64,000 bases of DNA from a virus (Duplodnaviria; Caudoviricetes). The stretch is from the IMG/VR virus record IMGVR_UViG_3300009082_000959, one strand, 5' to 3'. The number at the start of each line of letters is the position of its first letter. Positions within the stretch are counted from its first letter, which is position 1. The notes beneath the pieces are model-generated. The model searched no databases. It saw only the letters and a program-made list of their open reading frames with translations, and was not told the origin of the DNA. The position numbers and the translations under genes were made by a program. This document shows positions 4,866 to 64,000 of the stretch, one piece after another.

Positions 4866-5507
4866 ATGAAAGGTATTATTTATTTGGCAGCTGATACAAC
4901 TAACGATTTACAATATGTTGGACAAACTGTTCGTACACTTGAAAAAAGAAAACAAGGTGGTTATAATTCATACTTTCAAAATGCCATAAATCATCACGGT
5001 GATAAAATAGTATGGGATATAATTGGAGAGTTTGAAGAATCAGAACTGGATTTAATAGAACGTTGTTATATTTATAGTTTAGATACAGTTTATCCTAACG
5101 GATATAATTTTGACAGCGGTGGTTGTAAGCATAAACATATGTCTGAATCATCACGAAAGAAAATGAGTGAATCAAATAAGGGCAAAATAATATCAGATGA
5201 AACCAAACGCAAATTAAGTGAAGCAGCAAAAGGCAGAAAACACTCTGAAGAAACAAAAAGAAAAATTAGTGAGTCACTTAATGGCAAAACTCACACTGAT
5301 GATCGAAAATTAAAAATGTCAATTGCTGATGGTGGTAAATTGTTTTGCGTATATGATTTACAAGAAAATTTTATAGGTTTGTGGATAAATCAAGCAAAAT
5401 GTGCTAGGGACCTAGGATTACTAAGAACATCAATTAATAATTGTCTTAATAATAAAAGAAAAACTCACCACAACTATACTTTTCGATACTTAGTAGAGAA
5501 TAAATAA
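4866..5507 (+). mobile_element. Free-standing GIY-YIG homing endonuclease with NUMOD3 repeats
   Basis: N-terminal GIIY...YVGQT with conserved R, E and NGYN. NUMOD3-like repeats (HMSESSRKKMSES, HSEETKRKISES) and a C-terminal NUMOD1-like HTH. Confidence 0.9.
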
Positions 5508-8776: not shown

Positions 8777-8833
8777 CTTAAATAATATGAAACCTTGCCC
8801 GTTTCGGGGCTGATTTCTATCTATTGGTATACA

Positions 8834-11797
8834 ATGACAACAAGAGAAGGTATCATAGGCCAAAACATTGATCTTGGTATTAAATTTTACCAAAACGGCG
8901 AACTATATGATCCGTATAGCGTTTCTGACGTTTTAATCTACGATGCCGAAAGTGGTGGAAACCTAGTAGCCACGATTCCATCTGTTCGAGTTAGTGAAGG
9001 TTATTATATTGCGACTTGGTCGATTCCTTCTTCTTTGTCTCCTCAAACCCTATGGGATGTACATGTTTGGCGCGCTGAAGAAGACATGGTGGAAAAGTCG
9101 CAGACCTATTCTTTTGATATAGTTCCCAAAAGTATTTCCGTCGATGTCCCAAGTTTTGTAAGAGGGGACGTTGGCTGTAGAATCCGTCCAGCGTGGGAGT
9201 TTCACGTCGGTCTTGGTATCGCAGAGGATGTTGGAAATGGCATGGGCTTGAGGCTTACTTGGGGCCGCGCTCTTCCAAACAACCAAAACAATCTAGTACA
9301 CTATAATATTTATTATGCTGATTCCCGATTTGGTGTATTTGATTCTTGGCCACAAAACATGACAACCGCAACACAAGTTGTCATAAATGTTGATCCCGGA
9401 AAACTGCAATTTTTAGCAGTTAGAGCTGTTGAGTTTGATACTAGCGAATTTGATATTTCTCAATTGACCCAAGTAGGATCCAATCTATACGAATATCCTG
9501 AGGAATTAGAACTACAAAACGACATAGATGCTTATGGCGCAACAATTGAAGTAGGTGATACTACTGGTTTTCCCAATAAAGGATTTTTACTAATAGATAC
9601 AGAAGTTATACTGTACAGTAGTAAAACCAATAGTGCTTTTATTGTGGAGGACATAGACAGAGGAGCAATTTCAACTTATATTGCTGCACACGAAGCAGGA
9701 GCCACAGTTAAGCTTTGGCGCGGCATAGAGGACCAAAATAGTGTAATTGTTTCAGAAACCGCTACTTGGCACTATGCTATTGGTGTTCCGCGTAATGTTG
9801 ATGCAATAGGACAATACGCAGTTGACGAAGATGGTTATAGAGCAATACAAACCGACCTACTTACAACCGATTTAAGCGCCTCCGACGAAAATACAGAGGA
9901 TTTCCCCAGCTATGATTATACTGGATATCGTAGGTCTAGTCCGCAATCATTGTTTAATGGGGAATGTACATTTAGTTATGTCGGTGGAGAGTTTAATGGA
10001 GGAAGAGGACTAGCATTTCAGGACCAGAATTTAAGTAGGCTAGACTCCCAATTACAAATTTCTGGAGAACCATTGATACTCTTAAGACGAAAATGGACTG
10101 GAAGAAAATGCCGTTGTGCTGATTTGAGAAGAGATCATCCACATAGCAGGTGCGCCTACTGTTTTGTACCAGGAACATTGGTTAGGACTGAAACTGGTTA
10201 TAGACCCATAGAAGATATAGCAATTGGAGACAAAGTTTTATCATCAAGTGGTTTATTTTGTAAGGTTACAGAAACCATGAAACGCTCTTATGATGGGCAC
10301 TTGGTATCACTAAAATCACATGTCAGTTCTAGACCTATATTAACAACACCAGAACATCCGTTTTTAGCAATGGGCGGTAATCATTCCTCATTGATAAAGA
10401 GAGAGTGTGGGCCAGAATGTGAGGTTTATATAGGAAATGGTGATGGTAATAGATTTAATAATGACGTTCGTAAAGCTCCGTCGGGAAGATGGCATGCACG
10501 GTTTTCAATGAATAGGGTTAGAACTGCTCTTGGCACATTTGATACAAAAGAAGAAGCAGATGCGGTCGTCACAAAATATAAAAACGAGCACATACCAGTT
10601 GGCCACAAATTACAATGGATGGATGCGAAAGATCTTGATGATAATCCGTGGCTGGTTGCAAAGTGGCCAAATCAGACAATGGATATTGAGTATATAAAAG
10701 TGCCGGATATTTTTTTAAAACCAACAAGACCAGGCATGAAGAGAAATGGTGTTAATACATTTACCGTAGATACAGAGTTTATGTGGATTATAGGAATGTA
10801 CCTGGCAGAAGGAAGTTCCAGCAAAAGAACTATACAATTTTCCCTTCACAAAAAAGAAAAAGAGTTTTTTGATAGAATCAAAACCTTTTTTGAAAAATTA
10901 GGGTATAAAACAAGTGTTAGCTCGCATTCGGATAATGGTATAAATATATTTGTAAACAGCACAACCCTAGCAAAGTGGTTTCTCGTTTGGCTTGGCCGAG
11001 GATGTCAAAACAAGCACATACCAGAAGAACTTATGTATCTTCCAGATCAAAAAACACAATCCCTGATTAATGGAATTTACGATGGCGACGGAAGCAAATC
11101 TTGTAACGAAATTGGGCAAACATCTGAAATTCTTGCTTTACAAATAATGGAACTACTACATCGCATTGGCGAACAACCACTATTAAGATTACAACAATCA
11201 AGTATATTAACACCCAAGGGAAATGTTAGAAAACTTTGTTATATAAATAGTTGGGCAGAATCTGGGCTAAAACACGCGAATAGAAAAAATAGGTGGAAAT
11301 TTGGTGAAGAAATGTTAGTAAAGGCTCACAAAACATTTGGAATAATTTACTACAATGGCCCTGTGTATAATCTTGAAGTAGAGGGAAACCACTCTTATGT
11401 GGTAAATGGAATAGTCGTTCACAATTGTTTTGGGACAGCTTTCGAGGGGGGCTTCGATAGATACGTAAATCCAAGGCCAATATCAGAATCCTATTCCAAC
11501 ACCCAAGGATATATTTTGGCCAGAATTTATCCTTACACAGATGATCTTGAATTAGACGCATCACAAAGCTTAAGACAAACTGTAGAGTTGCAGGCTTGGA
11601 CTATTAATATTCCAAATATACGCGATCGTGACGTTTTAATACGCCTTAATGAAGATGGAACAGAAGAATATAGATATGAGTGTCTAAATGTTGTGAGAAG
11701 TAAATTGTTTTTTGGTAAAACCGGAAAACAAGAATTTACGATGAAGCGTTTAGATAAAACGGACGAAATATACACCTACACAATAAGTGTGTTATAA
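8834..11797 (+). CDS. Intein-containing virion protein (Ig/FN3-like N-terminal part, Zn-finger, head-closure-like C-terminal part)
   Basis: ATG 8834 is preferred over the tracked TTG 8795. The spliced product (about 565 aa) restores KCRC...RCAY|CFGTAFEGG. The head-closure assignment is an inference. Confidence 0.75.
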   Translation: MTTREGIIGQNIDLGIKFYQNGELYDPYSVSDVLIYDAESGGNLVATIPSVRVSEGYYIATWSIPSSLSPQTLWDVHVWRAEEDMVEKSQTYSFDIVPKSISVDVPSFVRGDVGCRIRPAWEFHVGLGIAEDVGNGMGLRLTWGRALPNNQNNLVHYNIYYADSRFGVFDSWPQNMTTATQVVINVDPGKLQFLAVRAVEFDTSEFDISQLTQVGSNLYEYPEELELQNDIDAYGATIEVGDTTGFPNKGFLLIDTEVILYSSKTNSAFIVEDIDRGAISTYIAAHEAGATVKLWRGIEDQNSVIVSETATWHYAIGVPRNVDAIGQYAVDEDGYRAIQTDLLTTDLSASDENTEDFPSYDYTGYRRSSPQSLFNGECTFSYVGGEFNGGRGLAFQDQNLSRLDSQLQISGEPLILLRRKWTGRKCRCADLRRDHPHSRCAYCFVPGTLVRTETGYRPIEDIAIGDKVLSSSGLFCKVTETMKRSYDGHLVSLKSHVSSRPILTTPEHPFLAMGGNHSSLIKRECGPECEVYIGNGDGNRFNNDVRKAPSGRWHARFSMNRVRTALGTFDTKEEADAVVTKYKNEHIPVGHKLQWMDAKDLDDNPWLVAKWPNQTMDIEYIKVPDIFLKPTRPGMKRNGVNTFTVDTEFMWIIGMYLAEGSSSKRTIQFSLHKKEKEFFDRIKTFFEKLGYKTSVSSHSDNGINIFVNSTTLAKWFLVWLGRGCQNKHIPEELMYLPDQKTQSLINGIYDGDGSKSCNEIGQTSEILALQIMELLHRIGEQPLLRLQQSSILTPKGNVRKLCYINSWAESGLKHANRKNRWKFGEEMLVKAHKTFGIIYYNGPVYNLEVEGNHSYVVNGIVVHNCFGTAFEGGFDRYVNPRPISESYSNTQGYILARIYPYTDDLELDASQSLRQTVELQAWTINIPNIRDRDVLIRLNEDGTEEYRYECLNVVRSKLFFGKTGKQEFTMKRLDKTDEIYTYTISVL
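10160..11425 (+). mobile_element. 422-aa intein with LAGLIDADG endonuclease and an extra AP2-like domain
   Basis: Block A CFVPGTLV, block B ILTTPEHPF, LAGLIDADG motifs WIIGMYLAEG and LINGIYDGDG, block F VYNLEVEGNHSYVVNG, terminal VHN followed by +1 Cys. Confidence 0.95.
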
Positions 11798-11810
11798 AGA
11801 AAGGAAAGAA

Positions 11811-13043
11811 ATGGCAAGAAAACTGACAGTTAACGAAGTAAAAGAAAGAATTAAAGAAATACACGGTGATTTGATTACCATGGACGAAACCACTTATATA
11901 AACACTAGCACTCGGTGCCGTTTTATTGATCGGGATTACGGAGAGTGGTTTGCTACTCCGCAGAAAATTTTGATTGGACAAGGAAACCCCAAAAGAGGGC
12001 ACGAAAAAAACGCACAGACAATGAGAACACGTATTATTGGGATAGATACAATAAAAGAAAGATTATTTAGTGTGCACAAAGACACTGTTTCTATAGATGA
12101 ATCAACATATATCGATTCACAAACGCCATGTAGGTTTATTGATACTGAGTATGGTGAATGGTTTGCAGCACCAAACAATGTCATTCATAACAAAACAAGA
12201 CACCCGAAAAGAGGCGAGATCATTAGAATAGAAAAACGGAAAACTCCGATGGAAAAATTAAAACAAATGATTTTTAATATTCATGGAACTACCGTCACGA
12301 TTGATGAATATACTTATAAAAACATTCATACACCTGCCAGATTTATTGACAGTATATATGGTGAGTGGTGGACCTGTCCATCAGCCGTTATTAATCAGGG
12401 ATGTGGGCATAAAACCCGAGGGGTCAAGAAAAATTCAGAACGTCGAACAATTCCAATTGATACCATAAAAAACCGTATTTTTGAAATACACGGTGATACA
12501 GTTTCTATAGATGAATCATCTTACGTAAACATAGACACTCGGTGTAGATTCATAGATAAAGACCTTGACGAATGGTATACTGTTCCAGCAATTATTATAT
12601 ATGCTTGCGCAGGACATCCTGGTAAAAAGAAAATAAAATGCGAAGAAACCTGCATGGAAAGGTATGGATGCAGGAGCCCAATGCAGGATCACAATATATC
12701 TCTAAAATCAGCAAGAAGTTCTAATATATCGTGTGTTCTAAAGCATTGGAAAACAGAAGAAGAAATAATTTGTATCGCATCATATGAAAAAGCCGTTGCA
12801 CAATATTTTAATACAAATAAAATTGATTATCTTTGGCAACCAAAAACGTTTCATATGACAATAAACGAAAAAAAACGAACATATCGACCTGATTGCTATT
12901 TACCTGGCCAAGATTTGTGGATTGAAATTAAAGGGTATTTTAGAGAGTTGTCGAAAGAAAAATGGGAATATTTCCATAACAACATACACACAAACTCGGA
13001 ACTTTGGAATAAAGAAAAATTAAAAGAATTAGGAATACCATAA
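11811..13043 (+). mobile_element. Putative PD-(D/E)XK homing endonuclease with four DUF723-like N-terminal repeats
   Basis: ATG 11811 with SD AAGGA. Four repeats of about 60 aa (IKERI..IHGD.V.IDE..Y....T.CRFID..YGEW), a CMERYG.RSPMQ linker, and C-terminal YRPDCYL...LWIEIKG. Confidence 0.8.
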
Positions 13044-15687: not shown

Positions 15688-18600
15688 ATGGCGTGGGATT
15701 CAAAAAAAGAAGAAACTTTTTCTGCACTGGAAAAACTATTAGATCAAAAAACCAATACACTTGGAACAACGGGCGGCAGTGTAGAAGAGCCGTTTAGAAA
15801 ACAAACCAATGTAATCCTAGGTGAAACTTGGCGTCTTGATCCCACTGTTGGGTCCGCAGAAGAATTAGTTGCTCCAAAATTCGACGGGTATGGGGTTGTT
15901 GGTTCCGTGGCTTCGAGATATGAGAGTTTACGACTTCATTCATATTTACCTTCTGGTGAGACTGGGCCAAATTCCTGTCAAACTTTTATAGTCGTTTCCA
16001 CTGCACCTACTTCTCACGCAATTTCCGACATAGATTCTGTAAGAATGAAAGACTTAATTCCACCAGTATATTCTCCTGGAAAATCTGATGCTGCCGAATC
16101 TGACGACTCTATTCGTGGTTTTGAGTTAGCACTTTATCCAGCCGCTTGTTATGGGGGTGTCGGTTCTGTGCTAGTCCCAGACCTAAACAAAAAAATTCCG
16201 ACTACTGCCGATCCAAGTGCTGTGTACGGCGCTGGTGAAAATGGATGGTCTGTTGATTACCTAAACGGAATTGTCCGACTTAGCGTTCCGCCCCTCAATG
16301 GACCAACAGGTGTATTTAATCCGAATGATGTGTTTGGTGACCTGGAAGGCAATAGAGCAGATGATGCCTATGGAAGTATTACACTTTTCGCAACATTTTA
16401 CCAATATAGTGGTTCCTATGGTTGGACAGAAAATCAGGACCTAGTTACCGTTGGTGATGGAGTTATAAGTACTGGAACTTATACTGGAAATTCACACAAC
16501 ACTATACAGTCTGCCATAGATTCACTGCCACACGGCGGAACTGTTTTTATTAAAGAGGGTAATTATTATTGCAGTTCTCCGATCGAGGTAAAACACGGAA
16601 TACATTTAAATGGAAGCAATAATACGAATATATTTTCGCCAGCGGGTAATTATCTTCTCGATATATCAAAGTCGCAGGTTTCCGTTAGTGGAATAAATTT
16701 GTTCGCTCCAGATGGCCAAACAAACACATCACTGATAAGAATAGGTTCAGACATAGATGGCTATTCTTTAAATGATGTAAGTATAAACAACAACAAACTT
16801 AATTGTAAGCTTGCAACCAATGGTATTTTATTACGCGCAGACGAGTATATGTCTTTTAAGAACTTGGATATTAGCGATAATACTTTTTCCATACAAGATG
16901 AGAATAACACAGTTTTTATTATTGGATTTGGAAATAGACTAGAGTCGTCACAACAATTAACTGCATGGACTACGGCTACTGGTATTTCTCAAACAATGTA
17001 TGGTGGGTATTTCAATGGAACTTTGTTTTGTATAGTTGGGGCTACTGGAGCAATATATACATCATCCGATGGTGTTTCGTGGACAGCTAGAACAGCAGAT
17101 AACAGCTATGGTGATGATTTTCACTCAGTAATTTACAACGGAACGCTGTGGTGTGCTGTTGGCGAAACTGGAGAAATTCAGACTTCACCAGATGGCGAAA
17201 CGTGGACTCATAGGGTTGCTGACTCAAGCTACATTGGAACATTTTATTGTGTCGGTTTTGATAGCGATGGAATGTTTTGTGTTGCAGGAGAAACGGGAGA
17301 AATTCAAACATCGACTGACGGAGAAACCTGGACGCACCAAACGGCTGATGATAGCTTTGCAGAAATATTTTATGGTATAGTTTATGGCAGTAATACGTGG
17401 TGCCTAGTGGGTGATAGCGGAGAAATTCAGACTTCACCAGATGGCGAAACGTGGACTCATAGAGTTGCTGATGCCGGATATACTGTCGGTACATTTTATT
17501 CAGTAGCACACAATCGGGTCAACACATTTATGGTCGTTGGTGAGGATGACGAGATACAGATTTCCTCGGACGCAGTGTCTTGGGAAAGTACTCATTCGAG
17601 TGTGGGAACTAATTTTGGTTCGGTTGTGTTTGATTATGGTAGAAATAAATGGATATTGTCAGGCTATGAAAATAATACTATTTTTACAACAACCGATGGT
17701 ACGAGTTTAGTTAGTTTGCCAGATTCAAATGGCACAGATGTATTCGGTCTTATGATTGCTCAGCAACCGACCGACCCAACTTTTATTTCTGTAAATTCAG
17801 ATAACCAGAGTTGTGTTTTTGGTAGTTTGTCAATTGCTAATAATAAGTTTGAGGCAGAAGAAAATAGAGAGTGTTTGGTAGAAATAATTGGCAACAATTC
17901 TTCTTTCGAACACATAAATATATCTGATAACATTGGTAGGGCAAAACTCAAAGTTTATATAGATGACGCGTATATGTCTAGCGTAGTGGTTGATGGTAAC
18001 TCATTTTATTCTGCTGATGTAGGACGTATTTCTGATTCTGTGTTTAGTAATAACACGATAGCAGACGATGTAACGATTACTGCTGCCATTAACTCTGATA
18101 TTTCACATAATATAATAGGCGGAACACTTGACCCAACGCTTGAAAATACACTGGTTTTTGGCAATAATATAACTGGTGATTTTAAAGCGGAGCACGTTTG
18201 GAATTCTTCTGTTTCCGAAAACATCGTAGGTGGAGCATTAACCATAGCAGATGGCCTAACTGATGGTGGAACAGTTTTGTTGGATTCAAAAATAAACAGC
18301 AATACTATTACAGGGGCTTTTAGTATTGCTTTGTCTTATACTGATTCACTAACCGCGCCGATAATAGATAGTGCTGTGTGTTCTGGAAATAGTGCTGCGT
18401 CGTTTGCTGTTGGCAGCACAAGTTTCGATGATGCAAGGCCAAGTTGCCAGAAATTTGTGTTCTCTGATAATATTATTACCGGAAATCTTGCAGTAAGAGG
18501 AAAAACACAGGAATCTTCTTATTCTGGCAATCAGATATTTGGTTCTTGTACTTTGGAGCCGGTTGCAAATTTCTCTTTCTCTGATGGATATGTTGGAACT

Positions 18601-20733
18601 ACTTGTGCAATTGGAGCATCAATTACTTATGGCATGGCAATAGAAAAAACAAGAATTGCTAATAATAATTTTGTTGGAAATGTTTCATTGGGAATAAGTC
18701 TTATTGACGGTGTTGTTTTATCGAACGCAAATATAGAAGACAACATAATGGGGGCAAGTCTTGCGATTGCTTCTGCTGCTGTTGCTGGAAGTGATAATGT
18801 GGTTTATAAAACAAATATTACAGGCAATACTATTGCAGGAAACTTTACTATTGGTGCTACTAGTGCAGGTTCGGCGTCCGATATAGTCCTAATAAAAAAT
18901 TCAAATATATCGGATAACATGGTTGAGGGTGTTTTGATTTTTGGTAGTTCAACGCGAAACCCACCAAATAATTGGACTTATTATGATAATAATATTAACA
19001 ATAACACCATAGGTGTAAGTTTTAGTATGTACGGCAAATGTGTTAGTTCTTCTTTGCACAAGAACGTTTCTTTGCATGGGGCATTTACCTGTGGTCCGTT
19101 GGCCCACTCCGTATTTTCTGATGGATATAGTGGCTCAACCATAACGATTGGAAATACACTGGTATCTGGTACTGCCGTTGCTAACTCGGATATAAAGAAT
19201 AATCAAGCCATTACCACGATAACCGTTGGACCGAGTTTGACATCTGGGTCTGCGCTTTCAAAATCAACTTTTGTGAATAACGCCTGCTACTCTACACTGG
19301 GTTTGGGTACATCTGTTACATCTGGTGATATTATTATCTATTCCTCTGTGAATGATAATAAAGCAACTGATTTTTCAATAGGGGTTGGCTTAACTGGCAC
19401 CACAACTGGCACCGTGCTGAAAGAAGCAGTTGTTAAAGGAAATTGGATTGATAGACATTTTGCACTTGGTAATACATCTCGCGACATTGATACCGAGACG
19501 TTCTTGGATAGTGTAATTTCTGATAACATAATTGAGTCAAATTGTACATTTAGTGGCTTAATTACAGATTGTAGTATAACAAACAACTCAATTGGTGGAA
19601 CTTTTTCAAGAGACAGCATAAGTGGAACGGTAAACATAATCGGTAACATTGGTACATTGGATGGATATATTTCGCAGAACGGCGACCTAAATATATCTGC
19701 TGGCACCAATGATATTATACTTCACTCTCGGGTTGTTCAAAATGGGCCGGATGGGTCATCTGTTATTTCTGACAATGGAAATTTGCTTTTTCATGACGGG
19801 TCTAGCTATATTGATATTAAAACATTTTTATTAACACTTGGTTCTTCTACTTTTACGCACAGATCACCTGATAATAGTTTTGATGGAGCATTTCAGGGTT
19901 CCTCTCACAGCAACGGAACTGATACCTGGTGTTTGGTGGGTGAACATGGAGAAATTCAATCGTCGTCCTTTGGATATACGTGGGTCCATAGAACTACTGA
20001 TAATAGTTACTCAGGTATGTTTTCATCGATTTGTTGGGGTGCAGACAAGTTTTGTGCCGTTGGTTCTTCTGGAGAAATTCAGACTTCACCCACTAGTGAA
20101 ACATGGACGCATAGAACTTCAGATAATAGTTACTCAGGTACATTTCAATCTGTTTCACACAATGGAACAGATTTGTGGTGTGTTGTTGGTGAGACTGGAG
20201 AAATTCAGACTTCACCAGATGGTATAACGTGGACTCATAGAGTTGCCGATTCAAGCTACATTGGAACATTTTATGGGGTTTCACACAATGGAACAGATTT
20301 GTGGTGTGCTGTTGGCGCGGACGGAGAAATTCAGACTTCACCAGATGGCGAAACGTGGACTCATAGAGTTGCTGACAATAGTACCACCAATGACCTATCT
20401 AGGGTTATACATAATGGTGTTATGTGGTGTCTAATTGGTGATTCACTTGAAATGCAAACATCCTTTAACGGGTTTGTGTGGGCTAGTCAAAGCGCAATAA
20501 ATGAACAGCTTCTTGGTATAAATACGAATGGTTTTGGTTTATTTATTGCAGTTGGGAATACTGGAGCTATTTGGATATCGGTAGATGGTATTAGGTGGAG
20601 AAAGCGACATTCTGGTTTAAGTAGCCCATATCCTTCCTTTACTACGATAGCGCATAATCAAGATGGAATGTTTATTATTGCTGGCACCGATGGTGAAATT
20701 CTAACGTCATTAAGGGTTTTGTTTGAAATATAG
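15688..20733 (+). CDS. Tail fibre/tailspike with parallel beta-helix regions and two BNR/Asp-box-like beta-propellers
   Basis: TIQSAIDSLPHGGTVFIKEGNY (pectin-lyase-like start), many N/I-rich beta-helix rungs, and two clusters of GEIQTSPDGETWTHR repeats. Confidence 0.85.
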   Translation: MAWDSKKEETFSALEKLLDQKTNTLGTTGGSVEEPFRKQTNVILGETWRLDPTVGSAEELVAPKFDGYGVVGSVASRYESLRLHSYLPSGETGPNSCQTFIVVSTAPTSHAISDIDSVRMKDLIPPVYSPGKSDAAESDDSIRGFELALYPAACYGGVGSVLVPDLNKKIPTTADPSAVYGAGENGWSVDYLNGIVRLSVPPLNGPTGVFNPNDVFGDLEGNRADDAYGSITLFATFYQYSGSYGWTENQDLVTVGDGVISTGTYTGNSHNTIQSAIDSLPHGGTVFIKEGNYYCSSPIEVKHGIHLNGSNNTNIFSPAGNYLLDISKSQVSVSGINLFAPDGQTNTSLIRIGSDIDGYSLNDVSINNNKLNCKLATNGILLRADEYMSFKNLDISDNTFSIQDENNTVFIIGFGNRLESSQQLTAWTTATGISQTMYGGYFNGTLFCIVGATGAIYTSSDGVSWTARTADNSYGDDFHSVIYNGTLWCAVGETGEIQTSPDGETWTHRVADSSYIGTFYCVGFDSDGMFCVAGETGEIQTSTDGETWTHQTADDSFAEIFYGIVYGSNTWCLVGDSGEIQTSPDGETWTHRVADAGYTVGTFYSVAHNRVNTFMVVGEDDEIQISSDAVSWESTHSSVGTNFGSVVFDYGRNKWILSGYENNTIFTTTDGTSLVSLPDSNGTDVFGLMIAQQPTDPTFISVNSDNQSCVFGSLSIANNKFEAEENRECLVEIIGNNSSFEHINISDNIGRAKLKVYIDDAYMSSVVVDGNSFYSADVGRISDSVFSNNTIADDVTITAAINSDISHNIIGGTLDPTLENTLVFGNNITGDFKAEHVWNSSVSENIVGGALTIADGLTDGGTVLLDSKINSNTITGAFSIALSYTDSLTAPIIDSAVCSGNSAASFAVGSTSFDDARPSCQKFVFSDNIITGNLAVRGKTQESSYSGNQIFGSCTLEPVANFSFSDGYVGTTCAIGASITYGMAIEKTRIANNNFVGNVSLGISLIDGVVLSNANIEDNIMGASLAIASAAVAGSDNVVYKTNITGNTIAGNFTIGATSAGSASDIVLIKNSNISDNMVEGVLIFGSSTRNPPNNWTYYDNNINNNTIGVSFSMYGKCVSSSLHKNVSLHGAFTCGPLAHSVFSDGYSGSTITIGNTLVSGTAVANSDIKNNQAITTITVGPSLTSGSALSKSTFVNNACYSTLGLGTSVTSGDIIIYSSVNDNKATDFSIGVGLTGTTTGTVLKEAVVKGNWIDRHFALGNTSRDIDTETFLDSVISDNIIESNCTFSGLITDCSITNNSIGGTFSRDSISGTVNIIGNIGTLDGYISQNGDLNISAGTNDIILHSRVVQNGPDGSSVISDNGNLLFHDGSSYIDIKTFLLTLGSSTFTHRSPDNSFDGAFQGSSHSNGTDTWCLVGEHGEIQSSSFGYTWVHRTTDNSYSGMFSSICWGADKFCAVGSSGEIQTSPTSETWTHRTSDNSYSGTFQSVSHNGTDLWCVVGETGEIQTSPDGITWTHRVADSSYIGTFYGVSHNGTDLWCAVGADGEIQTSPDGETWTHRVADNSTTNDLSRVIHNGVMWCLIGDSLEMQTSFNGFVWASQSAINEQLLGINTNGFGLFIAVGNTGAIWISVDGIRWRKRHSGLSSPYPSFTTIAHNQDGMFIIAGTDGEILTSLRVLFEI
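17170..20375 (+). repeat. Near-identical DNA repeats in two propeller clusters
   Basis: GGAGAAATTCAGACTTCACC occurs exactly at 17170, 17419, 20071, 20197 and 20323. A 44-nt stretch is identical at 17170, 17419 and 20323. The period is about 126 nt. Confidence 0.95.
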
Positions 20734-20737
20734 TGTT

Positions 20738-21493
20738 ATGAATAATCTTAAATTATCAGAAAAAGACGCTTTTATCATTGGAACTGGGCCATCTACCGCG
20801 AAATTACTAAAACACAAACACTTACTAAATAATTTTACCGTTATTGGCCTTAATTTTTCTATAAAAGATTTCGAAGAAAACCTTGATTATCATATAGTTA
20901 TGGAAAAAGAACCAAATGTTATATATAATTATATGAAAAATAATCCCTACAGAGAAGACTTGCCAAGGATAATAAACAAAATTCCTTTGAGATTTTTTCC
21001 AAAGGATGCAAATCTAATTCCAGCGGTTAGATGTGATTTTAAACACAAACCAAGTCTCCGCTCTTATACAAACGAATTTGGTTCAGGATTATTTTCTGGG
21101 TATATAACCCACACAATAAGGCAACCAGCAAGTGTTTGTCTGCAAGCACTTCATTTGGCTGGCATTTTGGGTTGTAAAAATGTTTACACAATAGGATGCG
21201 ACTTTTTATTTCAAGGTGATTTACGATATTATACTGGATACGACAACAAAGACCACAAATCTAATATTTCTACCTCCATTGTCAGGCCAAAGAATATAGT
21301 TGAAGTAGATTTTTGTGGAGAAAAACGACTAACAGCCGAATGCTATAAAAATACGGCCGATTGGACGAATAGGTTTATAAAAGAAGTGTGTCGTCCAGAG
21401 ATGGAAGTCTATGATTTTAGTGGTGGTCTTTTAACAGCCGCCATTCAATTAAATTTAGAAGAATTTATGGGAAAATATGAAAACAATATTTAA
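20738..21493 (+). CDS. Maf/DUF115-like (CstII-fold) glycosyltransferase-like protein
   Basis: AFIIGTGPS, VIGLN, DYHIVME and SVCLQALHLAGILGCKNVYTIGCDF match the family pattern. ATG 20738 is preferred over the tracked TTG 20723. Confidence 0.8.
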   Translation: MNNLKLSEKDAFIIGTGPSTAKLLKHKHLLNNFTVIGLNFSIKDFEENLDYHIVMEKEPNVIYNYMKNNPYREDLPRIINKIPLRFFPKDANLIPAVRCDFKHKPSLRSYTNEFGSGLFSGYITHTIRQPASVCLQALHLAGILGCKNVYTIGCDFLFQGDLRYYTGYDNKDHKSNISTSIVRPKNIVEVDFCGEKRLTAECYKNTADWTNRFIKEVCRPEMEVYDFSGGLLTAAIQLNLEEFMGKYENNI

Positions 21494-22493
21494 TATAATA
21501 ACGAATAAGTATGTTTTGCTTGCACTTATCGCCGTGTTTGTTGGTTTAGCAATACAAATAAAGGTTTGCTCTGTCCAAGAAAACGAAAGACTGGCAACTT
21601 ACAACCGCCAATTAAGTGGACAACTTACAGAGCAAGAACATTTGCTACAATCTGCTAATCATGAACTTGGAATTGCTAATTCAAGATTAGTTACACAGAA
21701 ACAACTAGCGGACGAATTAGAGAAAGCGAAGCTGGAAGTAGATAAAGAATTCGAAGCTTTCAAAAAAGAGCATAATTTGGTGATTGCTAGTAAAGACCTA
21801 GCTATAGCAAGATTGGAACAGCAATTACAAGGTTCTTCTGGAACCACTGTTGTTCCCGTTACACAAACTGACCAAGAATTATGTCTGAAAATTGAAGAAA
21901 AATGCGTAATTGGTTATACTTGGGCTGATAATTTTGGGCGGTTCTCTCTTATTGACCCAAATATTTTTAAATCTGGTGACGAAATCGTCACAATCAATCA
22001 ATATTTTAGAGTACTTGTGGAGACATTTAAGCAGCAAGATGGGTCTTTGATGATCCAGCGACTAGTTTTAAGAGAAGTATATCCAGACGGTTCCGGTGGT
22101 TATAAAGAAGTCCCAAACGGAAAAGCAGAAATTGTTGAACACGAATTTGTTTATGACAATGCACCAATTGAAATTCCGGAATGGTCTGCTTGGGATTTAT
22201 TTAAATTGCGCATGGTTGTGGGAATTGGAACAGAAATTTTCCCAGAACCAGGTGATTTAAGACTTTCCGTTGGTTTGCAGTTTTTTGGGTGGCGTGGACT
22301 GGGTGTTAATAGTCACACTGGACTTGATTTCGATGACCCAAAAAACATTGCGCAGTACTTGGCCATTTCTTATGCGCCAGAATTCGATGATTTCAAGTTA
22401 AACATTGGGCTTGAGGTTGCGGTAGGAACATTTTTGTATAAACCATTTGATGAATACAGTGTGAAGGTGGGCCTTATGTTTTATTTGTGGTAA
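21477..22493 (+). CDS. Membrane protein with N-terminal anchor, coiled coil and C-terminal amphipathic beta-strands (spanin-like)
   Basis: TM segment YVLLALIAVFVGLAIQI, coiled coil of about 85 aa, about six alternating strands ending SVKVGLMFYLW. Confidence 0.65.
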   Translation: MKTIFNIITNKYVLLALIAVFVGLAIQIKVCSVQENERLATYNRQLSGQLTEQEHLLQSANHELGIANSRLVTQKQLADELEKAKLEVDKEFEAFKKEHNLVIASKDLAIARLEQQLQGSSGTTVVPVTQTDQELCLKIEEKCVIGYTWADNFGRFSLIDPNIFKSGDEIVTINQYFRVLVETFKQQDGSLMIQRLVLREVYPDGSGGYKEVPNGKAEIVEHEFVYDNAPIEIPEWSAWDLFKLRMVVGIGTEIFPEPGDLRLSVGLQFFGWRGLGVNSHTGLDFDDPKNIAQYLAISYAPEFDDFKLNIGLEVAVGTFLYKPFDEYSVKVGLMFYLW

Positions 22494-22521: not shown

Positions 22522-23226
22522 ATGAGAAAACTATCTTTTGTTTTATTGTCTGTTATTTTTTGTTCTTGTACGGTTAATTTGGTAGTTCCGCCGATTGTTT
22601 CAGATAGCACCACAAAAGTAGATACAACCAGAGAATCAATGAATTCGGTTGTAAGAATCTCTGCAAATACACCCGACGGAACAACTGCATTAACTGGAAG
22701 TGGTTGGGCTAATTCGAAAGACACAATACTAACCGCTGGGCATGTTTGTTGGGCAATTATATCACTTCAAAAGGCCGGAGTTTTGGAAGATAATATCGAT
22801 ATACACTATTTAAACAGAGTAGATGCCCTCAGCAAGATATCTGGTGTTGAAATAGTAGATGTTTCAGATAAAGATGATATTTGTTTGCTGTACTCTGAAA
22901 ATCACGGGTTGCCGGTTTTGCAGTTTGAGGAAAGCAAAAATATAAAGTTTAATGGAGTAGCAATTGTATTAGGGTTTCCTCTTGGTGTTATGATAACCTA
23001 TAATAACGGAACAATTATTGTTCCAGATACTGGTAATTATTTTGATATTGAGGTTTTGCGAAATAAACTTATAGTTTCCTCTGCAAGTACTTCTGGTAAT
23101 AGTGGTGGGCCAGTGATAAATGAACATGGAAAAGTGATAGGAATGCTAATCGCGGGCCCGAGCAATGGGTACGATCATCTATCGGTGTGCGTTACTGTTG
23201 ATAGTATTAAGTCATTTATAAAATAA
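22522..23226 (+). CDS. Trypsin-like (S1) serine protease, probable lipoprotein
   Basis: Catalytic triad motifs ILTAGHVC, DDICLL and GNSGGP. Signal peptide ending IFCSC (Cys16). No PDZ domain. Confidence 0.9.
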   Translation: MRKLSFVLLSVIFCSCTVNLVVPPIVSDSTTKVDTTRESMNSVVRISANTPDGTTALTGSGWANSKDTILTAGHVCWAIISLQKAGVLEDNIDIHYLNRVDALSKISGVEIVDVSDKDDICLLYSENHGLPVLQFEESKNIKFNGVAIVLGFPLGVMITYNNGTIIVPDTGNYFDIEVLRNKLIVSSASTSGNSGGPVINEHGKVIGMLIAGPSNGYDHLSVCVTVDSIKSFIK

Positions 23227-26312: not shown

Positions 26313-29300
26313 ATGAGCGTTTTCCCAGATGACCTCGATTCCGATCTAGAAATTGCCAGAATCGAAAATAATGTTTCCGAAATTGGCGGTGATGTACTTA
26401 ATTCCTTGCGCGACGCTGTTTTTGCAATTCAGCGTGTGCTTGGTATTAATGCGCAAGGAAACAAACCAAGTTTAACAAGCCGCATTAATGTTTCTTTGGA
26501 TGCTGATGGTAATATAAAGCCAAGTTCTCTTGAAGGTATTGGTTTGGCGACCCTACCAATAACAAATTCACATGTTGGTGATAATGCAGCAGTACAAGAA
26601 TCAAAACTGGATCTTGATTTTGGGACACAATATTTAAAAAACCTCATAAGCTCTGCTCGTACCGATCTTGATGCCATCACTGCATCGGTTTCCTCACAGG
26701 GTTCTGGACTGAACCTTCATATTTTGGGCCTTGGCAATTATCACGACGGATATCATATAAAAATAAATAGCGGCACTCAAATTGGCGTCGCAGGTATGGC
26801 CTCTATCACAGTTGGTGACGCAATAAATGAATTAAGCACACGGTTGTTTTCTGGAAGCACAACAACAGAGCCACACATAGATTTAAACGTACCCTCAACA
26901 ACAAAACACGCAGCAAGCGGAATATCTGTTGATAGTTCTGATTTTGTCAGTATCGATCAGTCAATTTCCACTGTCCAAGGCGCAATAGATGCACTGGATT
27001 CTGGGTCAAATCTTTTAATAGAAAAGCATGTTGATGAGCTTCATGCCAACGGAATAATTAAAAATGTTCGATCATATGAGTTTTTTAATTCTGATCGTCG
27101 TTTGATTGGCCCAGTGAGTGGCGTTACTTATGCTTCTGGTGGAAGTGTTGTTACACTGACTGGAGAGACATCTCTATCATCTTATAAAATAAGTGTTGGG
27201 GATGTTTTAGTTATACACACTATGTCCGGTGTTCTGGATGTTGGAGCATTCCAAGTAAGAGCAATAGGTCCCTTAGCAGAAAGTGATACACTAGGTGATT
27301 TGCCCTCATTACTAGCAAATCAGGTTGCCGTATTTCATATTTTTTCTGAAACCAAGGCATCTGGTGACGGTGTTTCGGCGAGCATATACAAACCAGGACA
27401 AGTATCAAGTGAATATGCCCCATTGGCGTGCGGTATTAGACCGAACGAGACCATGGTTGATACAATTTCGGTTGTACGACCAGATGCGGCAAGGGTTGTT
27501 AGTGTTGGATTCAATGGCGCAATACTGGCTGCCGACGGATATGATGTAAAAATAAAAGTTGGTCTTGGAAATAGCACCTTCAGAGAGCTAATAATTACAG
27601 ATCTAAATTATGATAGGATTGGAACAAACAAATCGAATCCAGTAAATTCAGAACACGTTGCAGAACGAATTAATGCATTTGTGTCAGACCCAAATTCAGA
27701 AAATCACTTTCCCATTACAGCGGCAGGTGTTGGGAATGAACTAGTAATAGCACACGATTTGGTTGGTCCGGAATATACAATAGAAATTATGGAAGGATTT
27801 AATGGAAATTATCCGTTGGGTCTGGATGCATACGGAGCAGATGTCGCCGGAAATGTGGTTGTTGGAAACCTAAATTGTTTGTATAATATAAATGGAACCG
27901 GTATACGTTCAATTGCAACAAAGTTCACCGGAACTGCATCTATTAATTCTGCGACTGGAACCTTTTCTGTTTATAATAGTGACGGTCAGCTAATAAACCC
28001 ACTGAATTATGGAATTGGCCCAGGTTCTGTTATTCATATACTTGATCACCAGACCACAGAAACAAATGGTAGTTATACAGTATTGACCGCAACTACAACA
28101 TCTATTTCTGTATTTTTAGCAGAACAAATAGATGCGCCCACGTCACCTACCACATTTACGGTTGAGGCATACGAATCTCATGTGTCATTAAACTCAATTA
28201 GCGGGACAGAGACAGATAATGGAACTGTGCAAATATTTGTAGATGAGGATGGCAGAACACAAGTTCATCAAAGAATATCGTATGGAACAAGTTTTGGTTC
28301 TGCCTTTGAGATTGTATCTATATCAAATACTTTCCCAGAAGGAACATTTAGTATCTTAATTGACTCCGTTGGAAGTCTTTTGTCGTTCAATCTTCTTGAT
28401 GACTCATTCGCTGGTGATACCGTTTCCGTTGATGAAACATTTACTGGTGGATTCAAACTATATCACCCGAATGGCCTTGACTATATAACAATACATATAG
28501 AGGATGGGTCAGTGGTTGTTGGAACAGAAACACTAATTGTTTCTTCTGCCGCCAATGATGATTATTCTCTATTACTATGTACCGCGAATTTTAACGGTGA
28601 TATTGAAATAACCAATCTGGTTGACGGAAGATTATTTGGTAATATCGGGGCTGATCAAGTCCGCGATGATTTTATTGAAGTTTTTAGCCAGCTTCCCATT
28701 TCTGATTTAAGGTCCGATGGCGTTGTTCGTGGTTTCGATTTAGTTGCACTAACATATGCCGATGTGGTCACTGGAATGCAGGCACTACCTTTGCGTGGTG
28801 GCGTGGCATACGTAGATGGTGTAAGGGTGTCAGTAGAAACACAAAAAGTGATAGTGAATTCATTTAACGATGACGAAACCCTTATTAATGGTGATAGAAT
28901 AGTTGCCATTAATAACTTTGGATCAATTGAGGTTTTGCAGGATAGCATTGGAGAAATGCTGACAGATGGATATTACGCCAGTTCATCTCTTGGAAAGCTT
29001 CTGCCACTTTATAAGGTCTCCGTAGTAAATGGAGAAATATCAACCGTAATTGATATCAGAAGGTTTATAAACGACCTAGATAGTAAGTTGGATTTGGTTG
29101 TAGATGAAACAAATAATGTGGTGGGGAATTTTAGAAGCCTTGAGGGAGCACTTTTGTTTGCCGAAAGCTACCCAAACAGAGAGCACCTTACTGTTAGGAT
29201 TCTTAATTCCGTGCATCCGACTAGAAAGATTGTCGTTCCGAATGGAGTATCTTTGGTTGGAGGATTACCATTTGGCGGTGGCAGACACAAAATAATAAAT

Positions 29301-31424
29301 CAAAATAATCTTAATGCTGCCTTTATAGAGTTGGTCGGAAACAATTTCTTAAAAAATATAGAAATTTCCAGTTCAACGGCTGGTCTTCAGGGTCCATTAG
29401 TTAAGGTATCTGGATCAAATGTTGAAATAGATAATTGTTTAATTCAGTTCAATGACATAATTTCCAGTAATAGTGGAGACATTGGCATTGAGATAACAGC
29501 AGAGTCGGACATAGTAATAAGAGATACAAAAATAAACAATGTGTATATTGGTATATCTGGCACAACCGGCACAGATAATTTACTTATAAAAAATAATAGC
29601 ATTCTTGGTGTTTCTGGCGTTGGATTATCATATGCCGTGTATGTTGGTAGTAGTTCTCGCGAAATAGATAATTTAAATATAATAGGAAACACAATAGGTC
29701 TGGATAACACAGACAATACAGATTTGAGAGGAATATTTATTGACATTGGTGAGTCCATTGGAAAAGCAACAATATCTGGTAATAAAATTGTTGGTGAATT
29801 AAATGTCTTGTCTACCAACAATGTATCCAATGGTATAAGAATTATAAATACACTTGCGACAGGAAATGTTTTATCACAAGCAATAATACACGAAAACTAT
29901 ATAGAGAATGTTAAATTACTTGATAGTTCTGTGTTTGGAATTTATATTGAGGACGTAAGCAGGGTCTCAGTTTCTAACAATACTCTTGTAAATGTTGCAA
30001 CGTTTGGGGCACCTTACTCTGACACTGGATTTATTTGGATTGATGACTCTGTTGGAATTGTGGACGTTCACAATAACTTATTAAATATTGGAGAGGCGTT
30101 GCGCGGAATATATGTAAAGGGCACATCGACCATAACATCAATTCTCGGAAACACTTTGAGCCAAATTGGTGACGCAAATAATGCAACCAATTTGGCTCTC
30201 CCGTACTCTGCATATATTTTGGGCAATTCGGCTCGCGCAAGTGTTGTATCAAACACTTTTATTGGCCCAGGAGACTACGGTATTTGGTGGAAGGGAGAGA
30301 GATCAAAAATTTCAGGAAACCATTTTAGCACACCAGATAGCGCCACTAATTATGCCTTCAAAATAGGTATAAAAGCGCAGGCAAGCTATTTGGATATATC
30401 TGATAACATGTTGGTTGGGTTTACTGACACTGATTCAATGGGAATAGTAAACGTGAGCACAGCAAACGAAGGCGTAAGAATATCTAATAATACTATAGAT
30501 GGTGACGAAATGGCCAATCTAATAAAATTAAGTGGTGATTATCATGTAATTTCTGGAAATAGGCTTAAAAACTCTACACAATCGTCTGTTGGTGGCACAA
30601 CACAGTTCATTGAGTTTTCAAGTGATGCTGATAGTATATCTGTTGTTGGAAATACATTTGAGGGCAAAGGAACATCATTTATTTATTCAACCTATGCAAT
30701 AACAAATGCGTCAATTTTAAATAATACCATGTATGATGCGGGCGCGGCAATGCTAACTGGCGCACCAATTACGCTCAGCAGTGCGTCAGTAGCAGATTGT
30801 TTTATATCCGGGAATAAACTACCGGATATATCTCATTGCGGCGCTGAAAATACAATAGGTGCTTCTCCCTCACAATTTGATTATAATACTAATACCATAG
30901 GATTTAATAAGGGTTTATTAGATAGTATTAGTCTACATGCTTCAGCTGGTGTTACTGGATACGATTCAACGGTTTCTGGTGATGGAAAGCCGTTTTGGAC
31001 AATTGTGGATGGCGGAACATACTGGCAACTTAATAATACAGATAAAAATAATTGTTACTTGTATTTCCCAATAAATTGTTTACCAAATGGTTCTGTAATA
31101 AAATCAGCACAAATACAAGGCAGGTTCACAACACAGGCTGCGGCTGCATCTATTACGGCAAGAATATTTAAAAGAAGTGTTAATTTAATTGATACAAGTA
31201 GTCCAGTGCAACCCGTTAGTGACCCGATAACAATATCCATTAATGGTGAGTTTGTAAACACAACTTCTACCGGAACAATAGACGAAATATCTGGTGGTGA
31301 AATATCGGAAGTAATAAATTATAGTGAAAGTGCTTATTATGTGCAAATATACTATTTGTGTTCAAACACATCTTCTGCTTCCGGAATCCAAATAAGAGGA
31401 ATTACTGTTAATTTTAGACATTAA
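26313..31424 (+). CDS. Large virion fibre/tailspike with C-terminal parallel beta-helix
   Basis: MSVFPDDLDSDLEIARIENNVSEI start, paralogous blocks to 23245, and a right-handed beta-helix repeat region (I.I.NN.I..) in the C-terminal about 650 aa. Confidence 0.85.
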   Translation: MSVFPDDLDSDLEIARIENNVSEIGGDVLNSLRDAVFAIQRVLGINAQGNKPSLTSRINVSLDADGNIKPSSLEGIGLATLPITNSHVGDNAAVQESKLDLDFGTQYLKNLISSARTDLDAITASVSSQGSGLNLHILGLGNYHDGYHIKINSGTQIGVAGMASITVGDAINELSTRLFSGSTTTEPHIDLNVPSTTKHAASGISVDSSDFVSIDQSISTVQGAIDALDSGSNLLIEKHVDELHANGIIKNVRSYEFFNSDRRLIGPVSGVTYASGGSVVTLTGETSLSSYKISVGDVLVIHTMSGVLDVGAFQVRAIGPLAESDTLGDLPSLLANQVAVFHIFSETKASGDGVSASIYKPGQVSSEYAPLACGIRPNETMVDTISVVRPDAARVVSVGFNGAILAADGYDVKIKVGLGNSTFRELIITDLNYDRIGTNKSNPVNSEHVAERINAFVSDPNSENHFPITAAGVGNELVIAHDLVGPEYTIEIMEGFNGNYPLGLDAYGADVAGNVVVGNLNCLYNINGTGIRSIATKFTGTASINSATGTFSVYNSDGQLINPLNYGIGPGSVIHILDHQTTETNGSYTVLTATTTSISVFLAEQIDAPTSPTTFTVEAYESHVSLNSISGTETDNGTVQIFVDEDGRTQVHQRISYGTSFGSAFEIVSISNTFPEGTFSILIDSVGSLLSFNLLDDSFAGDTVSVDETFTGGFKLYHPNGLDYITIHIEDGSVVVGTETLIVSSAANDDYSLLLCTANFNGDIEITNLVDGRLFGNIGADQVRDDFIEVFSQLPISDLRSDGVVRGFDLVALTYADVVTGMQALPLRGGVAYVDGVRVSVETQKVIVNSFNDDETLINGDRIVAINNFGSIEVLQDSIGEMLTDGYYASSSLGKLLPLYKVSVVNGEISTVIDIRRFINDLDSKLDLVVDETNNVVGNFRSLEGALLFAESYPNREHLTVRILNSVHPTRKIVVPNGVSLVGGLPFGGGRHKIINQNNLNAAFIELVGNNFLKNIEISSSTAGLQGPLVKVSGSNVEIDNCLIQFNDIISSNSGDIGIEITAESDIVIRDTKINNVYIGISGTTGTDNLLIKNNSILGVSGVGLSYAVYVGSSSREIDNLNIIGNTIGLDNTDNTDLRGIFIDIGESIGKATISGNKIVGELNVLSTNNVSNGIRIINTLATGNVLSQAIIHENYIENVKLLDSSVFGIYIEDVSRVSVSNNTLVNVATFGAPYSDTGFIWIDDSVGIVDVHNNLLNIGEALRGIYVKGTSTITSILGNTLSQIGDANNATNLALPYSAYILGNSARASVVSNTFIGPGDYGIWWKGERSKISGNHFSTPDSATNYAFKIGIKAQASYLDISDNMLVGFTDTDSMGIVNVSTANEGVRISNNTIDGDEMANLIKLSGDYHVISGNRLKNSTQSSVGGTTQFIEFSSDADSISVVGNTFEGKGTSFIYSTYAITNASILNNTMYDAGAAMLTGAPITLSSASVADCFISGNKLPDISHCGAENTIGASPSQFDYNTNTIGFNKGLLDSISLHASAGVTGYDSTVSGDGKPFWTIVDGGTYWQLNNTDKNNCYLYFPINCLPNGSVIKSAQIQGRFTTQAAAASITARIFKRSVNLIDTSSPVQPVSDPITISINGEFVNTTSTGTIDEISGGEISEVINYSESAYYVQIYYLCSNTSSASGIQIRGITVNFRH

Positions 31425-35403: not shown

Positions 35404-36213
35404 ATGAAAACAGAAAGGGGCCAGCAACGACCCGACATAAACAATGAAATAGTGGTTAGCTTATACGACAACGGTAGGCTAACCATGAAAGAAGTTGGTG
35501 CGATACTTGGAATATCATCTGATTCGGTTTTAAATAGACTGCATGGTGTTGGAATAAGACTTCACACGCGGCACAAAATAAATCATGATGTGTTTAATAT
35601 TCCAAGCAAAGAAGGTTGTTATTGGGGAGGGTTTATAGCGGCCGATGGATGTATAAATAACAAAAAAACTGTGGTAACTGTAGAGCTTCAACGATCCGAC
35701 AAAAAACATCTTGAAAAATTGTGTTTATTTGTTGGGAGAGACAATAAAACGTGGAACAGAGAAAGAATTAGGGGTAATAAACGTTTAAAGTATTCTACTA
35801 TTTCGGTTGTTTCTAAAAAGATTGTCTCTGACCTTGAGGTTAATTTTAATATAGTTCCTCGAAAATCTATGGTTTTAGACAAACCAAATATACCGGCAAA
35901 TTGTGTGAATCATTTTATTCGTGGATATATAGATGGAGATGGACACATAGGTTGGCATAACGGTGCTCCAAGAATAAATGTGGTATCTGGTTCTAAAAAA
36001 ATATTATACTGGATTAGGGACGAAATAGTTAGTGGTGTCAGTGGGACATTTTGTCCAGCAATTCTTGCAAGACACAACGGCAGTACTCTTTCCATAGAGT
36101 TTGGCGGAAAGAATTCTTATAATATTATCGAATGGTTATATAGTGATTCTACAGAAAGCACCAGATTAGAAAGAAAATTCGAAAGAATTACAGAATACTT
36201 AAATAAGAGGTAA
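35404..36213 (+). mobile_element. Free-standing LAGLIDADG homing endonuclease with N-terminal HTH, between sheath and tube
   Basis: YWGGFIAADG and FIRGYIDGDG motifs, N-terminal LTMKEVGAILGISSDSVLNRL helix-turn-helix. Confidence 0.9.
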
Positions 36214-63496: not shown

Positions 63497-63607
63497 TATA
63501 TTTGTCGCTCTATATGATTGTTTCTTGGTTTTCCACGGTCTAATGACCTTTATACACGAGAAATTTTGGTTGTCAAGCGACTTATAAGAAATTTTTAGGA
63601 GAAAAAA

Positions 63608-64000
63608 ATGGCTAGGTCTAATTGGTCGAGAGTAAATTTTTTTGATGGTCAAGAGGTTTCTGAAACGGACCTCGATGTTGAACAGAGCGCATGGCATAAT
63701 GGCTTGGCCAATGCCGTAGATTTTTTGGCGGGTAGCGGGGTAGAAAAGGATTCTGCAGTTCAAAGAGTGTTGTTTGACTCGGATGATGTTCCTGCGTCTA
63801 TATCTAGTCTGATTTCGTCAACATCATTTGATGGAGAGCCTATATATCCAACAGATGCGTTTGGCCAGGTTGTTTTTCTGCAGCCATCCGATGCATCTGA
63901 GGGAAACCAATTAGAGGTTGAAATATCTGGATCATCATTGGACGGGACTCCAAGTGCCAAGGTATTTGTATTTGGTCAGATTTTTGGCGGAACATTTACT
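63608..64000 (+). CDS. 3'-truncated baseplate/fibre-attachment-like protein (not in ORF track)
   Basis: SD AGGAG, ATG 63608, open to the window end: MARSNWSRVNFFDGQEVSETDLDVEQ... Confidence 0.8.
   Translation, partial: MARSNWSRVNFFDGQEVSETDLDVEQSAWHNGLANAVDFLAGSGVEKDSAVQRVLFDSDDVPASISSLISSTSFDGEPIYPTDAFGQVVFLQPSDASEGNQLEVEISGSSLDGTPSAKVFVFGQIFGGTFT

Follow-up and report, generated by a model that had tools for sequence, protein, structure and literature searches.

A stand-alone Maf/CstII-like (PF01973) glycosyltransferase core of 251 aa, here called P0001, is encoded at 20738..21493 (+ strand) of a 64-kb stretch of DNA (the whole of which we call the window) from an uncultured huge myovirus, directly behind the gene for a 1681-aa fibre-like protein. 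The gene is genuine and conserved, and there is direct support for the fold of its product, for the conserved active-site residues, for the linkage of its family to NeuB and cytidylyltransferase genes and for a conserved pairing of fibre and enzyme. We propose, tentatively and with a confidence a little short of even, that P0001 is a cytoplasmic transferase core using CMP-activated ulosonic acids that is made with the late fibre genes and most likely decorates the 1681-aa fibre encoded upstream of it; the donor, the acceptor and the occurrence of transfer we infer.

The window is a single-strand block of tail, baseplate and fibre genes, among them a tail sheath gene (32830-35400), and tail/fibre families are also found at several other window ORFs. 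Within this block the reading frame of P0001 translates without a stop over all 251 aa, and the GC content of the gene is 0.327 against a window mean of 0.372 (sd 0.033), or ~1.4 sd below it. The ATG of P0001 follows the TAG stop of the 1681-aa ORF (15688-20733) after 4 nt, and the last 17 nt of the gene are shared with the next ORF (21477-22493). Because the 4-nt gap contains no terminator-like or promoter-like site, co-transcription of P0001 with the 1681-aa fibre gene is plausible. A first-pass annotation of this DNA had put the gene 4 nt after the largest fibre gene; the spacing is correct, whereas the rank is not, since two ORFs are bigger, one of 2180 aa (56954-63496) and one of 1703 aa (26313-31424). 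No hydrophobic stretch or signal-like sequence was seen by eye at the N-terminus of P0001. The same sequence is present in Logan contigs of run SRR5468431 and in NCBI assembly GCA_902730985.1, where its 223-kb contig stops close to window position 63,497. The structural module is interspersed with several homing or HNH-type endonuclease genes (814-1851, 4866-5507, 11787-13043 and 35404-36213), and a 1000-aa ORF (8795-11797) has Hint/intein-splicing matches recorded for its counterpart on the NCBI contig, one unmarked and the others weak or faint, which suggests a putative intein in this structural gene.

PF01973 is the sole Pfam match of P0001 (E 5.2e-7; 30.0 bits vs a curated cut-off of 34.6). 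This family is now named MptE-like and earlier went by DUF115/MAF_flag10; it is matched at E <= 0.01 by 26 of 38 relatives of P0001, and the predicted fold described below agrees with membership of P0001 in the PF01973 superfamily. PF20157 (Maf_flag10_N) gave no match in P0001. Among 1.84 billion cluster representatives, exhaustive searching with phmmer recovered 60 relatives with E <= 1e-3, of which 39 reach E <= 1e-10; most of the relatives are 215-390 aa long. Single-sequence searches of P0001 against PHROGs, NCBIfam and PDB sequences produced no match, nor did ~50,700 deposited phage genomes (blastn with the region, tblastn with P0001) or an exact-peptide scan of IMG/VR with P0001 alone, and none of ten relatives looked up bears a functional name. 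Conservation counts refer to an alignment of 38 relatives; the locus scan used an 8-sequence alignment, the full 38-sequence set being too divergent. A 364-aa protein encoded upstream of one relative (P0005, at locus L006) was rejected as a family member (branch 4.75, no BLAST match).

The AlphaFold2 model of P0001, built on the 38-sequence alignment, has a mean pLDDT of 88.7 and a pTM of 0.88, with loop 167-180 as its only poor region. Its best structural match is the central catalytic domain of the Maf glycosyltransferase 5mu5, a modified GT-A, sialyltransferase-like domain (Foldseek E 1.2e-6, TMq 0.63; VIA Z 16.9 over 209 residues, rmsd 3.6, chain 264-516). Scores for the other structures are those of the pterin kinase MptE, 8sd5 (Foldseek E 6.9e-4, TMq 0.34; VIA Z 10.9 over 155 residues), SteA (VIA Z 10.2, not listed by Foldseek), Cst-I (Foldseek E 3.4e-3; VIA Z 9.7), CstII (Foldseek E 8.9e-4, not listed by VIA), mammalian sialyltransferases (Foldseek E 7.8e-3 to 5.7e-2; VIA Z 8.1-8.7) and thiamin pyrophosphokinases (VIA Z about 6-7, not listed by Foldseek). 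Because the Foldseek and VIA scores favour 5mu5, the modelled P0001 is grouped with the Maf/CstII sialyltransferase-like fold and not with the MptE kinases. The earlier assignment to the Maf/CstII-fold family is thus borne out (Z 16.9 for Maf vs 10.9 for MptE), and the structure search did not return the grouping with MptE-type pyrophosphokinases that had been named as the outcome that would overturn it.

The motif set that the same annotation had picked out is present in P0001 (GxGPS at 15-19, N39, E56, S132, H139 and G153-x-D155). A profile of the family matched Maf 5mu5 at E 2.3e-4, CstII at E 3.2e-4, in an alignment spanning most of both profile and chain, and MptE at E 1.4e-3 over the N-terminal ~100 profile positions only. 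The GxGPS nucleotide-sugar binding motif, G15-T-G17-P-S19 (codons 20780..20794, + strand, as for all codons given here), reads GNGPS in CstII and GSGPS in Maf, and both G17 and a Ser/Thr at 19 are found in 38 of 38 relatives. N39 (20852..20854) is the counterpart of CstII Asn31 and is Asn in 36 of the 38, while E56 (20903..20905), acidic in all of them, is the counterpart of Maf E324 when residues are counted along the 5mu5 profile alignment. D155 (21200..21202), two residues after the invariant G153, is acidic in 37 of 38 relatives and corresponds to Maf D415 and CstII D154. S132 (Ser/Thr in 36 of 38) and Y164 were aligned with CstII S132 and Y162, column 164 being mostly His among the 38 relatives (30, with Tyr in 6), and F158 was aligned with CstII Y156. 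E324 and D415 of Magnetospirillum magneticum Maf are reported as essential by mutagenesis cited in bioRxiv 10.1101/2020.06.03.131540, which also states that their equivalents are needed in the Clostridium botulinum and Geobacillus enzymes. At the position aligned with the catalytic base of CstII, His188, the profile alignment shows no conserved His, residues 167-180 being poorly modelled. H139 (21152..21154), which is His in 37 of 38 relatives and has no Maf or CstII counterpart in the alignment, is a candidate family-specific catalytic residue. On these residues P0001 looks catalytically competent.

NeuB-family synthases (families NeuB/PseI/LegI) produce ulosonic acids, nine-carbon or related ones, which enzymes of the CTP_transf_3 type (families NeuA/PseF/KdsB) activate with CMP. 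Since genes of both kinds occur in operons with relatives of P0001, the donor used by the family is most likely a CMP-activated ulosonic (sialic-acid-like) acid, as read from the loci of those relatives, and the earlier idea of a nucleotide-activated nonulosonic-acid donor gains strong support from the same neighbourhoods. The next genes after P0005 at L006 encode a GNAT acetyltransferase, a NeuB-family synthase and a GT2. A 55-kb JGI contig (L007) holds three paralogues together with two NeuB genes, methyltransferases, a phosphosugar mutase, GT2 and GT1 genes, and pyruvyl- and sulfotransferase-like genes. Two IMG/VR records, G001 (206 kb) and G002 (102 kb), lie behind loci L015-L017 and L021-L027. 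The one family member of G001, also 251 aa long, belongs to an operon whose genes are tightly packed, many of them overlapping, in the order aminotransferase, hexapeptide acyltransferase, glycerophosphotransferase-like, unknown, the enzyme, unknown, CTP_transf_3 cytidylyltransferase, pyruvyl transferase, methyltransferase, NeuB, which places the enzyme two genes before the cytidylyltransferase and five before NeuB; besides a 392-aa PseB-like dehydratase, the record as a whole encodes three NeuB proteins and two cytidylyltransferases. In G002, three family members are interleaved with four NeuB and three cytidylyltransferase genes, and one Maf-like copy (86362-87129) contains an in-frame TGA. 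These multiple synthase and cytidylyltransferase genes hint that the G001 and G002 phages may make more than one ulosonic acid. We do not name a particular sugar because the NeuB-family synthases of both records are short open frames (244-348 aa).

The 942-aa protein that starts at window position 63608 has a 67%-identical homologue on a JGI contig as long as G001, and because of this homologue and of the homologues of the window tail module that G001 carries, G001 appears to be a relative of the window phage. The window itself has one family member and, over its 64 kb, no match to the proteins of the relatives' NeuB regions. The gene following the 942-aa fibre-like protein in the window phage, read on a Logan contig, is a GT2, and related phages carry GT2 and GT1 blocks at the matching position. 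The phage-encoded glycosyltransferase-like gene for P0001 is placed between fibre-module genes, and the GT2 follows tail genes. Linkage to glycan synthesis is not universal among family members, because P0009 of another large phage (L031 7254-8084, JGI Ga0611983_001845) has genes for tubulin, helicase, DnaB and PrkA/DUF444 around it and no sugar gene within 7 kb. On the contigs of three more distant IMG/VR relatives (G003-G005), neither NeuB nor a cytidylyltransferase is present.

The candidate acceptor, the 1681-aa fibre-like protein upstream of P0001 (15688..20733, + strand), contains two blocks of about 44-aa GEIQTSPDGxTW repeats and matches no Pfam family at E <= 0.01. The blocks cover about residues 430-690 and 1390-1680, and the stretch between them is beta-helix-like and rich in N-x-I/T-x-G turns. 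The repeat motif resembles the Asp-box/BNR propeller motif, being one residue shorter. Immediately downstream of P0001, the ORF at 21477..22493 (+ strand) encodes a 338-aa protein, P0003, with an N-terminal membrane helix, a coiled coil of ~85 aa and a beta-rich C-terminus ending in Trp, which could be a spanin-like or fibre-associated membrane protein. Homologues of P0003 (44-46% identity) are encoded directly after the fibre homologue at L004 and in G001 and G002, and P0003 is part of the fibre module in relatives with or without the enzyme gene.

In a maximum-likelihood tree of 49 rows (one of them, L006up, is unrelated and to be ignored), P0001, P0002 and L004a, the first of two tandem copies at L004, form one clade (SH-aLRT 93), which is nested in a supported group (96) that includes the island copy P0006. 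All three clade members are directly 3' of homologues of the 1681-aa fibre, and they come from three different samples. L004, from a marine sediment metagenome, comprises the fibre homologue, two PF01973 genes and a 46%-identical homologue of ORF 21477-22493; at L030, an upstream fragment is 61% identical to the repeats of the 1681-aa fibre. In G001 and G002, homologues of the fibre and of P0003 and a 1017-aa homologue are consecutive, with neither a Maf-like enzyme nor a trypsin-like protease between the fibre-module genes, and the enzyme copies of both records sit in the sugar island. Because these two records keep the fibre module without the enzyme and have their copies in the sugar island, the fibre position of the enzyme is lineage-specific, and the P0001 gene looks like an island paralogue that was moved beside the fibre in one lineage and retained there. 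A trypsin-like serine protease gene between the fibre-module genes of the window (22522-23226, + strand; Trypsin_2, E 2e-13) looks like a second lineage-specific insertion, because it is absent at the equivalent position in G001 and G002.

A link between the enzyme and DGY tripeptides, drawn in the first-pass annotation, gained no support from this analysis. Characterised Maf enzymes modify Ser/Thr, according to bioRxiv 10.1101/2020.06.03.131540, and DGY has neither. The 471-aa tail-fibre-like protein encoded at 3438-4853 (+ strand) contains ten DGY tripeptides, mostly at a spacing of 27-29 residues, and judging from its sequence the tripeptide is there part of a structural repeat. DGY is over-represented in other large fibre-like window ORFs too.

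We propose that P0001 would act as a cytoplasmic stand-alone catalytic core of the Maf/CstII type (a GT-A variant), that it would be made together with the late tail-fibre genes, that its donor would be a CMP-activated nonulosonic or related ulosonic acid, and that the repeat-rich 1681-aa fibre would most likely receive the sugar. The sugar could go straight onto Ser/Thr, as with Maf on flagellin, or it could cap a glycan laid by other phage glycosyltransferases, as with CstII on lipooligosaccharide. The acceptor chemistry is ambiguous because the core-only size is CstII-like and the fold is closest to the protein-acting Maf. That this lineage of huge phages has a dedicated minimal Maf-like enzyme that puts a phage-made sialic-acid-like sugar on its own receptor-binding fibre is possible, and we regard it with considerable doubt.

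Most located relatives lie within sugar islands and not beside fibres, G001 and G002 have the fibre without an enzyme there, and at 251 aa without extra domains P0001 is like the glycan-acting CstII (258-262-aa crystallised chains) and unlike the 632-residue Maf. These observations would suit a CMP-ulosonic transferase that performs one step of a sugar-island pathway on a lipid- or carrier-linked glycan, has no fibre specificity and came to lie beside the fibre accidentally, through gene shuffling. We consider this explanation unlikely, though it deserves serious attention, since, unless the pairing were selected for, one would hardly expect 3 of 3 members of a distinct subclade, in different samples and at about 40-55% identity, to adjoin homologues of the same fibre. 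An acceptor on the host surface (an LPS or capsule glycan, flagellin or pilin), modified for superinfection exclusion or to keep progeny from sticking to lysed cells, is improbable in our judgement. The precedents of Maf on flagellin and CstII on lipooligosaccharide point that way, as do the membrane-anchored product of the next gene, P0003, and a language-model feature search in which a Bacteroidota cluster combined PF01973 with a WaaZ Kdo-transferase domain (rank 77, score 0.88, low). However, the P0001 gene is within a one-strand tail/fibre block and not in an early or lysogeny-type region, its relatives cluster with phage-encoded sugar synthesis beside virion genes, and P0003 accompanies the fibre whether or not the enzyme is there.

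Two further explanations would deny P0001 a role in sugar transfer altogether. A catalytically dead, structural or chaperone-like protein that merely keeps the fold would be consistent with the poorly modelled loop 167-180 and with the replacement of the D-H common in the family (163-164) by L-R / Q-K in P0001 and its nearest relative P0002, but the remaining conserved active-site columns are all intact in P0001 and position 164 is Tyr, like CstII Y162, and we think this very improbable. We give still less credence to a metabolic kinase of the MptE 6-hydroxymethyl-dihydropterin or thiamin-pyrophosphokinase-like type, an interpretation invited by the MptE-like name of the only Pfam model matched and by the core fold shared with MptE 8sd5 and thiamin pyrophosphokinases (Z 10.9 and about 7). 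The Maf match is the better one and takes in the whole protein (209 vs 155 residues, Z 16.9 vs 10.9), the sequence alignment with MptE is confined to roughly the first 100 profile positions, the acidic residues reported as essential for Maf are retained, and the relatives adjoin NeuB, cytidylyltransferase and glycosyltransferase genes, with no annotated folate or pterin neighbour.

Bacteria are known to modify proteins of their flagella, pili and S-layers with nonulosonic acids. If P0001 acts on the fibre, acidic sialic-acid-like caps would be carried by the phage receptor-binding organelle, where they could change host recognition, shield it from proteases or antibodies, or cut self-adsorption. 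Should the enzyme prove to be dedicated to the fibre, it would provide the first example of tail-fibre 'sialylation' by a phage, and a 251-aa core would be enough to recognise a protein acceptor, with none of the accessory domains that bacterial Maf enzymes have. As a natural minimal Maf catalytic core, P0001 could also interest glyco-engineering, in which bacterial Maf enzymes already serve for work on proteins (PMC11339370). The analysis further bears on annotation. PF01973-like proteins are common in uncultured phages and mostly auto-labelled MptE-like, and many of those labelled '6-hydroxymethylpterin diphosphokinase MptE-like' are more probably ulosonic-acid transferases instead. Many uncultured-phage proteins of about 390-714 aa (ESM Atlas, BFVD) are fusions of PF01973 with a SAM methyltransferase domain, which suggests that sugar transfer and methylation may be coupled in them.

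Among known systems, P0001 is closest to the Maf enzymes of M. magneticum (5mu5), C. botulinum and Geobacillus, with which it shares the central Maf_flag10/PF01973 domain, the GxGPS motif, both essential acidic residues (E324/D415 of Maf, E56/D155 of P0001) and a predicted cytoplasmic location; Maf genes, like those of P0001 relatives, are linked to NeuB-family and CMP-sugar genes. Maf differs in having a 632-residue chain, against the 251-aa core of P0001, with identity of about 13-16%; its flanking N-terminal (Maf_flag10_N) and C-terminal domains are absent from P0001, and only residues 264-516 are matched. P0001, unlike Maf, has the near-invariant family-specific His139, is encoded by a phage and is paired with a tail fibre, and no flagellin gene is annotated in the window or in the loci of the relatives. 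CstII and Cst-I of Campylobacter jejuni (CAZy GT42) resemble P0001 in similar size and single-domain build, and N31, S132, D154 and Y162 of CstII correspond to N39, S132, D155 and Y164. The CstII donor is CMP-Neu5Ac, and the enzyme acts on lipooligosaccharide glycans. Their fold match to P0001 is weaker than that of Maf (Z 9.7 for Cst-I), Y156 of CstII is a Phe in P0001, and no counterpart of its His188 was seen in the profile alignment. Archaeal MptE (8sd5) shares the PF01973 model and a Rossmann-like core, but its match leaves the C-terminal third of P0001 uncovered and P0001 has no folate/pterin gene context.

On the side of the phages, the nearest parallel is virion glycosylation in mycobacteriophages, where, as with P0001, phage-encoded glycosyltransferases adjoin structural genes. 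For Che8, Corndog and Myrna, decoration of virion proteins by the phages' own glycosyltransferases is thought to occur or has been shown (Freeman et al. 2023, cited in PMC12619734), and PMC12619734 describes glycosylated capsid and tail-tube subunits in these systems, whereas the P0001 gene lies beside a fibre gene. In the literature we found no paper on the function of a PF01973-like protein in phages, no phage-encoded Maf-type enzyme or virion with nonulosonic acids, and no Maf-like ulosonic-acid transferase paired with a fibre. Set beside these systems, P0001 is a phage-specific minimal form of a known kind of enzyme, and one that is linked to a tail fibre.
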